Source: Coprobacillaceae bacterium
GTDB lineage: Bacteria > Bacillota_I > Bacilli_A > Erysipelotrichales > Coprobacillaceae
DNA length: 32,000 bases
Reading direction: 5' to 3'
Assembly (NCBI GenBank): GCA_963675515.1
Contig: OY776328.1
Coordinates: 2,040,001-2,072,000, forward strand
Below the pieces are notes generated by a model. The model saw only the letters and a list, made by a program, of their open reading frames with translations. It did not search any database and was not told the DNA's origin. Both the position numbers and the translations under genes were made by a program. Numbering within the stretch: the first letter of the stretch is position 1; every line of letters begins with the position of its first letter. Positions 5,915 to 8,504 of this stretch are shown here, one piece after another.

Positions 5915-6610
5915 GTGCGAAACGTTTCCCTATAAGTGCCTAGGCATGAAATGGGAGGATTTTCCAATAGGAAAATCACAACTGAATATTCAATACTTGG
6001 AATGATGGCTGTCATGTTAGCCTGAAACAAGTAGTCTGATACTCCTACACGCATGAGGTTATAACAGTAAAATTATGTGTGAAGCTAGGTGAAGTCGGCT
6101 GAACAATACCTAAGTGATATATCATATGGTAAAGGATAGGCCGGGACGCTATAAATTATCTATGGTGAGAATGTCCGTGTAAGGACTGACGAAACTGCGA
6201 ATGTACGGGTCTAGAAAGTCGTGCTATTGAAAGGTGGCATGTTGCGTGCGCAACGATGAATATCGAAAAGTAAGAATCGTTGATATGAAATTCGAGATAC
6301 TCGACAATGAGGGTATAATTCATCAGGCTCATAGCAGGAACCTAAGGATAAATGTAAAGCTAGAATATTTGGAACGTTGTAAGCGAGAAACGTCTATTAA
6401 ACGACTGTTATCGGGACGGTAACTATAAGTGTAAACGAAGTGTTTTTATTCTCGTGAAAGTAGGGGCACAGTACCGATGAAGCCACGAAAAATGGTGGAG
6501 GGATAGCCCCAAGTCTGGTTCTTTAAAAATCAGTTACAGTTAAATGAAGCTCACAGGGTCTGATAAGATGATGGGAAACAATTGTTCTAAACGAAAGGAA
6601 TAATCCATCG

Positions 6611-8405
6611 GTGAGCACGGGATTACGAAACAACGAATATTACAGTATGCAGGAAACTTTTGACTGGTTGTATCAAATGAGTTTAAACAATGATACTTAC
6701 GGGATAGATCTTTATAATCTGGTGATATCCAGGAACAATATACTCCTCGCCTATCGAAACATCAAAAGCAACACCGGAAGTCACACTAAAGGCACTGACG
6801 GCCTTACTATTGATGATTACAAGATAGAAAACGTTGAGAAATTTATTCAGGATATTAGACTATCGCTATTGGACTATAAACCAAAAACGGTAAGAAGAGT
6901 AGAAATACCTAAACCTAATGGAAAATTACGACCATTGGGAATACCAACGATGCATGACAGACTGATTCAACAGATGTTCAAACAGATACTTGAACCAATC
7001 TGCGAAGCGAAGTTTCATAAGCATTCATATGGATTTAGAGCCAATCGCTCAACCCATAATGCTTTGTCAAGATGTTGCCATATCGCCAATATGACGCACA
7101 ATCACTATGTTGTTGATTTGGATATCGAATCGTTCTTTGACAATGTCAATCATACCAAGTTAATCAAACAACTTTGGAATATCGGCATCAAGGATAATCA
7201 GGTACTGACGATTATAAGTAGAATGCTGAAAGCTCCCATCAAAGGAGTAGGTGTCCCACACTGTGGGACACCACAGGGCAGGAGTGCTTTCGCCATTACT
7301 TTCAAACGTAGTGTTGAACGATCTGGACTGGTGGATAAGCAATCAATGGGAAACATTCAATGCTGATTATAAATGTCCATATAAGTATAGAGTACTCAAG
7401 AAAACCAATCTAAAAGAAATGTATGCGGTAAGGTATGCCGATGACGCACGAGTCTTCACTTGCAGTTATAAAAATGCGGTAAGGATATATCATGCGGTCA
7501 AGGAATATCTGAAGAATGAACTTAAACTTAATGTTTCACCTGAAAAGTCAAAGATTACCAATCTAAGGAAACGTAGGTCGGACTATTTGGGGTTTGAAAT
7601 GAAGCTGGTACCAAAGCGCAAGAAGTACGTTGCGAATACCTTTGTATCGGCGAAAAGTAAAATAAAAATCAAAGCGGAAATAAGGAAAAGAGTTATCGAG
7701 ATACAGCGTCATACAATTTCCAAGAATATCCACAATTATAATTCATATATACTGGGGATAAGAAATTATTATGAAGCTGCAACACATGTAAATATAGATT
7801 TTAGAAATGTTTACCATCAGACGCTCAAGACCTTGTACAACCGATTGAAACCAATAGCTAAATATGAAGTACCCAGGAGTCCCCCACCGTTGTATAAGAA
7901 GTTATTTAAGAATAACTATCGCACATTCACGATTGGAGCCATTTCATTGTTTCCACTGGCGGATACGCAGTGGAAATTGAAGACAAACTTCAATCAAAAC
8001 ATATGCAACTATACCCAAGAGGGGCGCAAATTAGTTTATAAACGATTAGAAAATAATGTAACCTCAGTTATGAAGAGGTTGCTGGAACTGCCAATTGGAA
8101 ACGGAAGTGTGGAATATCGGGATAACACAATCTCAAAGTATTCAATGCAAAAAGGGCGTTGTGGAATCACCCAGTTGTTTCTAACGGCCGAGGAAATACA
8201 CTGTCATCACATTGTTTCCGTTGGAGATGGTGGAACCGATAATTTTGACAATCTAATCATTATTCACAAAGAAGTACATAAACTAATACACGGTAATAAT
8301 CAGGAAACTGAAAAAACGCTATTGAAAAAGTTCAATCTAAACAAAACACAGCTTAAAAAACTGAACATGTTGCGTAAGAGATGTAATTTAACTGAAATAA
8401 ATTAA
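6611..8405 (+). pseudogene. Group II intron-encoded reverse transcriptase/maturase with C-terminal HNH endonuclease domain, split by a +1 frameshift at ~7280
   Basis: Frame 1 (6611-7366) carries RT motifs up to ..GVPHCGTPQG. Frame 2 (7251-8405) continues GVLSPLLSNVVLNDLDWW, RYADDARVF (YADD), the maturase region, and HCHHIVSVGDGGTDNFDNLIIIHKEVHKLIH (HNH). Confidence 0.85.
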
Positions 8406-8422
8406 AGAAGAATTAGATGGAA

Positions 8423-8454
8423 CGCCGTGTGCGGTGAAAGTCGCATGCACGGTG
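8423..8454 (+). ncRNA. Group II intron domain V
   Basis: CGCCGUGU-GCGGU-GAAA-GUCGC-AU-GCACGGUG: two helices, a GAAA tetraloop and a 2-nt bulge, with a CGC catalytic triad. Lies ~50 nt before the 3' splice site. Confidence 0.8.
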
Positions 8455-8504
8455 TGGAGCGGGGGAAAAGATGGAGATAACATCAAAGTCTTACCTATCG
8501 CTAT

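Follow-up and report, generated by a model that had tools for sequence, protein, structure and literature searches.

A complete group II intron interrupts the acid/base glutamate codon of a GH1 6-phospho-beta-glucosidase gene in a Coprobacillaceae bacterium, and its reverse transcriptase (RT)/maturase gene carries a frameshift that recurs in every DNA copy found of the intron. The locus lies in a 32,000-nt stretch, called the window below (NCBI GenBank assembly GCA_963675515.1, contig OY776328.1, positions 2,040,001 to 2,072,000 of the forward strand; coordinates are counted from the first letter of the stretch). The intron is 2590 nt long and stands in sense orientation relative to GH1. From comparison of the copies we regard the following account as probable in its entirety: the intron would have retrohomed, in sense orientation, into the chromosomal GH1 gene, its target would be set by RNA pairing, its relatives would form a mobile family and the frameshift would be decoded. 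The features concerned are collected in Table 1.

The two exons of 595 and 884 nt join in frame to 1479 nt encoding 492 residues. The insertion point lies between G5914 and A8505 (TFNE/IN; a slash marks insertion points throughout), and the split G/AA codon rebuilds E199 in YWMTFNEIN, the predicted ligated junction being ...TTCAATG/AAATCAAT. The TFNE199IN motif is thus formed only after the exon join, and the ENG motif (E387) is encoded in exon 2; following established GH1 knowledge, we take the TFNE glutamate to be the acid/base and the ENG glutamate to be the nucleophile. The joined protein matches Pfam GH1 (PF00232) across the junction with an E value of 9e-127, scores 646.3 bits against the NCBIfam 6-phospho-beta-glucosidase model NF007158 (cut-off 639), and is colinear with solved 6-phospho-beta-glucosidases (6wgd, E 1e-177; 2xhy, BglA, E 6e-175). 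An earlier reading of this DNA, hereafter the original prediction, had placed the intron inside the catalytic acid/base codon of a GH1 6-phospho-beta-glucosidase and held that its removal restores an in-frame 1479-nt open reading frame (ORF) with TFNEIN and ENG; the translation and the Pfam, NCBIfam and PDB matches bear this out.

Intron-less alleles are present in relatives and are colinear with the joined exons. An uninterrupted homologue of the same length, P0261, differs at 8 of 492 residues (98% amino acid identity), while P0001, P0002 and P0003 are 93%, 92% and 88% identical, P0002 being labelled Erysipelotrichaceae bacterium. At the DNA level, L081 and L082 align with the joined exons without gaps (84.5% and 83.6% nucleotide identity), and their site reads ...ACTTTCAATG/AAATCAA.... 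The prospect that related GH1 genes might carry a different sequence at 5914/8505 did not materialize, since 112 of the 120 best GH1 homologues read TFNEIN. Since the empty alleles align gaplessly, the insertion is exact and without target duplication, as expected for retrohoming. The longest product of an unspliced GH1 mRNA is a 207-residue fragment without either catalytic glutamate, so GH1 activity would have to depend on splicing and active enzyme is predicted to arise only from spliced mRNA. A separate GH1 homologue, P0014 (779 aa), contains an internal duplication of ~290 residues, with DVDGKGASVSDM...SYYMSSCVSKD occurring twice; the repeat probably stems from tandem duplication or from faulty assembly.

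The intron begins with GTGCG at 5915-5919 and ends with ...CGCTAT (CTAT at 8501-8504), in agreement with the GUGYG/AY termini of mobile group II introns. Its domain I core matches the full length (1-201) of the Rfam model RF02004 (group-II-D1D4-5, domains I to IV of type 5) with 109.8 bits (threshold 34.5; E 2.5e-23), and positions 8420-8504 match RF00029, which covers domains V and VI, at 61.6 bits against a gathering score of 40. The Rfam scan of the window gave nothing beyond these two intron matches, nor is there any tRNA in the window. The original prediction was accurate as to the intron ends and the presence of a canonical domain V, whose limits are shifted by one nucleotide on each side, being 8422-8455 rather than 8423-8454. 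The domain V base of this intron is CGC, not AGC. Judged from sequence, the organization is of the LtrA type, with an RT-X-D-HNH intron-encoded protein (IEP) and a IIA-like delta position adjoining exon-binding site (EBS) 1. The IEP has the D and HNH domains, but LtrA is a weaker PDB match (138 bits) than IEPs of the IIC and IIB classes; by this comparison of PDB matches the intron may belong to either ML or bacterial class B.

Seven further DNA copies were found through the cluster to which a C-terminal fragment of the IEP belongs, giving eight with that of the window. They are 93.5-99.9% identical in nucleotides to the window intron and up to 100% identical among themselves. The window copy sits in GH1 at TFNE/IN. 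Another GH1 motif is occupied in three different GH1 genes: L167 lies in a GH1 gene of a phosphotransferase system (PTS) operon at FYNRYKE/DIALMAEMGF, L170 in a different GH1 gene at HYHRYKE/DIALMAEMGF, and L171 (5' side) and L166 (3' side) in a third GH1 gene at the same motif. Two copies interrupt IS66 transposase genes, L168 at SDGYQAYD/ (5' exon only) and L172 at HCDE/TTTQ, both sites being within the DDE_Tnp_IS66 domain. The remaining copy, L169, adjoins a GH1 fragment and has lost both of its ends, being a relic with 99.9% identity to the window copy; it spans L169:3582-6061, lacks intron positions 1-85 and 2566-2590, and is joined to the GH1 fragment (…KKYGGFRNRKCIEFF…) upstream of the TFNE motif. 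It is a rearranged, dead copy. The introns of L167 and L170 are 100% identical yet reside in two different GH1 genes, and those of L171 and L166 are 99.9% identical. Since copies are 93.5-100% identical and identical ones occupy different genes, these comparisons show a family that is young and still moving, and that retargets by mutation of EBS1 and EBS2.

The pairing that would direct this movement can be read from covariation. Domain I is nearly invariant among the family copies except for two clusters, which correspond to EBS2 and EBS1 (Table 1). In the window, all six EBS1 positions (CGTTGA) pair with exon positions -6 to -1 (TCAATG) and all five EBS2 positions (AAGTC) with positions -11 to -7 (GACTT). 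EBS1 CTTTGT of L167 and L171 faces ACAAAG, and EBS2 AGTGG faces CCGCT; L170 has the same two sites opposite ATAAAG and CCGCT. L168 combines TGTCGT and ATGACA for EBS1 with ATGCT and GGCAT for EBS2, and L172 combines CGTCGC and GCGACG for EBS1 with AGTGGA and TCCACT (exon positions -12 to -7, a register shifted by one nucleotide) for EBS2. The EBS2 cluster is the sole variable one in its part of domain I, and it covaries in the window, in L167/L170/L171 and in L168. Covariation of both sites is also seen at the homologous positions of eight relatives with an intact ORF, with single mismatches in L088 and L090. The delta position U6277 faces A8505; all five known 3' exons begin with A, so that this position offers no covariation. 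Collectively, these patterns show an insertion site specified by predicted pairing of the intron RNA, EBS1 with -1 to -6, EBS2 with -7 to -11 and delta with the A at +1. The original prediction had located EBS1 at 6225-6233, opposite 5906-5914. The 9-nt match does exist, but this segment is identical in all copies whatever their exon and an equal match arises in 13% of shuffled domain I sequences, so that we discarded it as a coincidence. A GTCAT in a hairpin loop near 6011-6015 was likewise rejected as EBS2, being invariant among the copies and too close to the 5' end.

In all cases with both flanks known, the intron comes directly after the G of a glutamate codon (G/AA or G/AG). The intact-ORF relatives (L001-L003 and L086-L090) all reside in SpaA/Cna-B-like repeat domains (PF17802), at a GxYxxxE motif, and the (H/R)YKEDI motif hit by the window family is found in ~100 of 120 GH1 homologues. 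As far as these sites indicate, the family and its relatives habitually occupy conserved glutamate codons of multi-copy genes, so that the 'catalytic-codon' position in the window is a family habit and not a one-off. Such codons could supply many near-identical homing sites. The SpaA target of L086, TTACTACAAAG/AAAC, and the GH1 YKE/D target have CTACAAAG/AA in common, which suggests a route by which the switch to GH1 may have happened. The GH1 gene of the window itself has an empty YKE/D site at 5587-5612 (CACCACTACAAGG/AAGAC), which would pair with EBS1 CTTTGT (one G-U) and EBS2 AGTGG of the L167/L170/L171 lineage. Two related introns are carried by L090, at 2333 and 2604 in one surface-protein gene, 270 nt or about one SpaA repeat apart, which suggests homing into successive repeats. 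Scans of genome and metagenome contigs for more copies returned only relatives of at most 72% identity, PLSDB plasmids matched part of the intron at no more than 74% identity, and a pattern scan of viral contigs for intron copies gave none.

The original prediction listed an RT/maturase/HNH ORF within the intron. As encoded, this gene is split over two frames by one extra base in RT motif 4: a frame-0 ORF at 6611-7366 overlaps a frame +1 ORF at 7251-8405. The first part starts at GTG 6611 or ATG 6647 and, if unshifted, stops at 7364-7366. The extra base, A7280, divides motif 4, frame 0 ending in ...GTPQG and frame +1 continuing as GVLSPLLSNV...; the codons at this site are CAG GGC A GGA GTG in the window versus CAA GGC GGA ATA in intact relatives that are 68-72% identical. 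Removal of A7280 yields a protein of 585 residues that carries RVT_1 and HNH domains (Pfam) and scores 345 bits against TIGR04416 (group II intron RT/maturase; cut-off 300) in one stretch across the junction. The extra base is present in eight of eight DNA copies, which come from differing samples and assemblers and from both short- and long-read data. In the protein database the family is represented by 14 C-terminal and 6 N-terminal fragments, some from two complete NCBI genomes, nearly all of which fit the frameshift, with P0256 as the single exception, and among 5.8 billion protein clusters there is no intact IEP relative above 72% identity. Since all DNA copies have the extra base and only fragment proteins exist, without a full-length one above 72%, sequence comparison indicates that the frameshift is real and ancestral to the intron family. 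The long-read copy L170:484-3083 (ERZ21869602) shows 10 scattered 1-nt insertions against its 100%-identical twin L167, which is assembly indel noise. Two protein entries are chimeric: P0256 runs ...GTPQGG in frame 0 and then into an unrelated, GC-rich-looking LCGYRHNPPCG..., and P0244 starts as translated domain V, fused to the IEP C-terminus at W/KLKTNF. The two entries suggest that intron copies recombined or became nested by insertion, and that a copy without the extra A may exist.

Selection on the split ORF was assessed between lineages that all carry the frameshift, at a synonymous divergence (dS) of ~0.25. The ratio of nonsynonymous to synonymous divergence (dN/dS) is 0.05-0.07 for the frame-0 half (full 211 codons) and 0.12-0.16 for the frame +1 half. 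Neither half contains a stop codon, and the other indels are limited to an in-frame triplet in L168 and L172 and to the L170 noise. The ribozyme parts diverge by just 3.6-4.3%. Of the 13 variable positions upstream of 7280, 9 are synonymous in frame 0 and 1 in frame +1; of the 17 downstream, 10 are synonymous in frame +1 and 2 in frame 0. The selected frame thus switches from 0 to +1 between 7276 and 7301. These substitution patterns show that both ORF halves and the ribozyme are under purifying selection despite the frameshift. Furthermore, the retargeting of the EBS to four sites, and the presence of identical L167 and L170 introns in two GH1 genes, postdate the frameshift. Neither a dead ORF nor pure mobilisation in trans is expected to leave such a pattern.

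How the shift would be decoded is less certain than its conservation. The reading that we favour, to which we give about an even chance, is that full-length RT/maturase is made by a programmed +1 ribosomal frameshift at GGC-AGG-A: a ribosome holding GGC in its P site, with AGG next to be decoded in the A site, would slip by +1 and read GGA, restoring TPQGGVLSPLL. Alternatively, the shift could take place on AGG, or the ribosome could make a short hop from GGC onto GGA. The junction peptide would be GTPQGGVLSPLL for the +1 shift at GGC, GTPQGRVLSPLL for the shift on AGG and GTPQGVLSPLL for the hop. A conserved, perfect 10-bp hairpin just upstream may assist the +1 shift. It has a folding energy of -19.2 kcal/mol (z -4.0), its stems are invariant in eight of eight copies, with loop nucleotide 7261 alone varying, and the homologous segments of intact relatives fold at just -1 to -9 kcal/mol, which makes the strong hairpin family-specific. 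In a bacterial 70S system, +1 frameshifting can be stimulated by a duplex that directly precedes the shift site (PMC6321510). Frameshifting of this kind would hold the output of RT/maturase low. The fuller version, in which RT/maturase is made only through an obligatory +1 frameshift or short hop in motif 4, and the family has specialised in homing into glutamate codons, several of them catalytic, with the conservation of paralogues as its supply of sites, is put forward tentatively, at slightly less than even.

Several points weigh against a programmed shift and the account built around it. GGC-AGG-A is no classical slippery motif and has neither a slippery P-site codon nor a stop codon. AGG is not rare: it makes up 4.95 per 1000 codons and stands in frame 8 times in the IEP itself. 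A prfB-like Shine-Dalgarno (SD) element at the right (3-nt) spacing is absent from the sequence at the shift site. Only 4 nt separate the hairpin from the P-site codon, which would place part of the hairpin inside the ribosome during the shift. The IS110 element upstream may have displaced the GH1 promoter, so that the window copy could be silent. Decayed relatives exist, namely the truncated L169 and the chimeric P0244 and P0256, and at least one copy in the source genome may lack the extra A, as P0256 reads TPQGG in frame 0. Splicing, the lariat and the trans-frame protein are all predicted from sequence. Among the candidate drivers considered for the shift, a 'hungry codon' effect of rare AGG as the main one is weakened by the codon counts, a prfB-like internal SD as stimulator was set aside as none stands at the 3-nt spacing, and transcriptional slippage was rejected as there is no homopolymer run at the site. 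A literature search for recoding in IEPs of group II introns brought up no case.

Other explanations of the split gene fare worse than ribosomal decoding. A sequencing or assembly error, with A7280 not real and the ORF intact, would be in line with the frequency of single-base indels in long-read assemblies, as illustrated by L170, but was rejected as extremely improbable, since eight independent assemblies from several samples and assemblers, short-read included, carry the base and fragmentary gene calls in two NCBI genomes mirror it. A dead insertion, in which the frameshift inactivates the intron protein and the GH1 copy is a pseudogene tolerated thanks to many GH1 paralogues, is unlikely. 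The break inside an essential RT motif, the IS110 element directly upstream of GH1 with IS200/IS605 downstream, the truncated relic 99.9% identical to the window intron and the circulation of intron-less alleles could all be expected from it. On the other hand, the frameshift is common to all diverged copies, at dS ~0.25, with dN/dS of 0.05-0.16 over the two halves and no stops or frame-breaking indels; the ribozyme is conserved; retargeting of EBS1 and EBS2 to four sites postdates the frameshift, and identical copies occupy two genes; and the GH1 exons are intact, 8 residues from an uninterrupted allele.

Selection on both halves would equally be expected if the two ORFs were translated separately and the fragments assembled into an active RT/maturase, an N-terminal fingers/palm fragment extending to 7366 and a C-terminal one starting at GTG 7251 behind AAGGAG at 7242-7247. 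This SD-like AAGGAG stands 3 nt before GTG 7251, exactly where the +1 ORF opens. We nevertheless consider such a split protein as doubtful as the dead insertion, since a 3-nt SD spacing is poor, GTG 7251 is buried in the -19 kcal/mol hairpin, the contiguous TPQG/GVLSPLL motif would be cut, and the frame-0 tail varies in length. Changes upstream of 7280 are, moreover, synonymous in frame 0 and nonsynonymous in +1, albeit at few sites, and AAGGAG also occurs in intact relatives, as K-G-V codons. Lower still is the chance that the family is non-autonomous, its frameshifted copies being spliced and mobilised in trans by another, intact co-resident IEP, as in the ORF-less introns of Thermosynechococcus. 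Mobilisation of degenerate introns in trans is documented (PMC2882425), and, within the source genome, our search for other introns covered the window. Such mobilisation would, however, not maintain strong purifying selection on both ORF halves, and the database, including both NCBI genomes with copies, holds no intact protein above 72% identity.

Table 1. Features of the interrupted GH1 locus, in window coordinates
Feature	Position	Strand	Basis or remark
IS110-family element (PF01548, PF02371)	3518-5310; transposase ORF 3877-5130	- (ORF)	intergenic; absent at L081
GH1 exon 1, codons 1-198 and G of Glu199 codon	5320..5914	+	translation; colinear with intron-less orthologues and PDB 6-phospho-beta-glucosidases
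Intron-binding sites (IBS): IBS2 GACTT 5904-5908, IBS1 TCAATG 5909-5914	5904..5914	+	EBS pairing; covariation over four target types
Group II intron	5915..8504	+	GTGCG...CTAT ends; RF02004 and RF00029; precise insertion versus empty alleles
Domain I core	5977..6155	+	Rfam group-II-D1D4-5
EBS2 AAGTC	6216..6220	+	complementarity extendable to 6214-6222; covaries with exon -7 to -11
'EBS1-like' segment TATTGAAAG, not EBS1	6225..6233	+	invariant among copies with different exons
delta U6277; EBS1 CGTTGA 6278-6283	6277..6283	+	EBS1 6/6 pairs with exon -1 to -6, four target types
IEP part 1, frame 0, RT motifs 0-4 to GTPQG	6647..7279	+	ORF list, Pfam RVT_1, dN/dS
Perfect 10-bp hairpin GGTGTCCCAC-ACT-GTGGGACACC	7250..7272	+	4 nt upstream of shift codon; stems 7250-7259/7263-7272
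Frameshift site GGC AGG A, extra base A7280	7277..7283	+	comparison with intact relatives
IEP part 2, frame +1: GVLSPLL, YADD 7434-7445, X/thumb, D, HNH 8157-8282	7281..8405	+	Pfam RVT_1, HNH
Domain V, 34 nt, GAAA loop	8422..8455	+	RF00029 alignment, sequence check
Domain VI, bulged branch-point A8497, 7 nt before 3' splice site	8459..8501	+	RF00029 alignment, sequence check
GH1 exon 2, AA of Glu199 to stop, ENG nucleophile at residue 387	8505..9388	+	translation, orthologue and PDB alignment
Intrinsic terminator-like hairpin and T-run after GH1	9393..9419	+	downstream of GH1
IS200/IS605 tnpB (OrfB_IS605 / Cas12f-like TNB)	10423-11571	-	downstream of GH1
IS200/IS605 tnpA (Y1_Tnp)	11573-11977	-	downstream of GH1

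The surroundings of the locus are syntenic with L081, with hydG/hydE/hydF-type radical-SAM genes followed by GH1 and then a small membrane protein. Relative to L081 the window has ~1.8 kb extra, corresponding to the IS110-family element, which ends 9 nt before the GH1 start codon. The IS200/IS605 pair stands where L081 and L082 carry a YjdM gene. Further downstream, an iron-containing alcohol dehydrogenase gene on the minus strand (12280-13510) is split into two overlapping ORFs, as is its L081 homologue (13953-15183), which could reflect a shared pseudogene or another cause.

The prevailing view holds that bacterial group II introns avoid conserved genes and depend on an intact RT/maturase, and the window family challenges both notions. 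Two aspects appear new from these comparisons: the fact that one enzyme family has been entered repeatedly, at two of its conserved motifs, in addition to IS66 and SpaA motifs, and a shared frameshift within the RT that is maintained under purifying selection. Since small EBS changes switch targets, the copies constitute a natural series for studying retargeting, and the use of beta-glucosides would become conditional on splicing in several GH1 paralogues. A literature search gave nothing relevant on introns in phospho-beta-glucosidase genes.

The closest relatives with intact ORFs are sister introns from C. perfringens (IepA, P0131), Erysipelotrichales (L001, L002) and gut metagenomes (L086-L090), with 68-72% identity in the IEP, ~80% in domain I and ~95% in domains V and VI. 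They have the same EBS1 and EBS2 positions and are likewise inserted after the G of a glutamate codon in a conserved repeated motif, but their target is the SpaA/Cna-B-like GxYxxxE, they have no extra base in motif 4 and their hairpin is weaker. The Ll.LtrB intron of Lactococcus lactis, which resides in the relaxase gene ltrB and encodes LtrA, resembles the window intron in its RT-X-D-En protein in domain IV, in a target read by EBS1, EBS2 and a delta position adjoining EBS1, and in interrupting the coding sequence of a host gene that requires splicing to function. The presence of Ll.LtrB can depress expression of its host gene (PMC6003770). In contrast to the window IEP, LtrA is a single intact ORF, and the single natural homing site of Ll.LtrB lies on conjugative elements, whereas the window family has several; the IEP match to LtrA is distant (138 bits), and the window intron has CGC instead of AGC at the base of domain V.

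In Thermosynechococcus elongatus, one intron lineage, TeI3/TeI4, proliferated by diverging EBS specificity and by insertion into mobile elements (PMC2882425). The window family similarly shows four specificities, with two targets in IS66 genes. TeI3/TeI4, however, are thermophilic introns of the IIB/CL type whose degenerate members are ORF-less and mobilised in trans, and TeI4d, the sole frameshifted ORF among them, also has stops and is degenerate, whereas every member of the window family retains an ORF under selection, with a single frameshift common to all. Interruption of a conserved bacterial gene by a group II intron is rare, with examples in Geobacillus recA and in polC, mutS, radC and uvrD of the B. 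cereus group (PMC2504315). Unlike these single loci, the window family hits paralogous enzyme motifs (two GH1 motifs in at least four genes), including a catalytic codon.

With respect to decoding, the nearest parallels are the +1 shifts of Ty1 and Ty3 (Pol/RT), the -1 shifts of IS3 and IS1 (OrfAB) and the +1 shift of E. coli prfB, in which, as would be the case here, a frameshift sets a low full-length ratio, that of the transposition enzyme in the mobile elements. Ty1 shifts at CUU-AGG-C, also with AGG in the A site. We know of no other group II intron that depends on recoding. The Ty1/Ty3 and IS3/IS1 shifts lie between functional ORFs or domains, whereas that of the window family lies inside a catalytic motif. 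If it is indeed decoded by the ribosome, group II introns would join those mobile elements in which recoding limits the supply of the transposition enzyme, and the motif 4 site would represent a compact new +1 frameshift cassette from Firmicutes.

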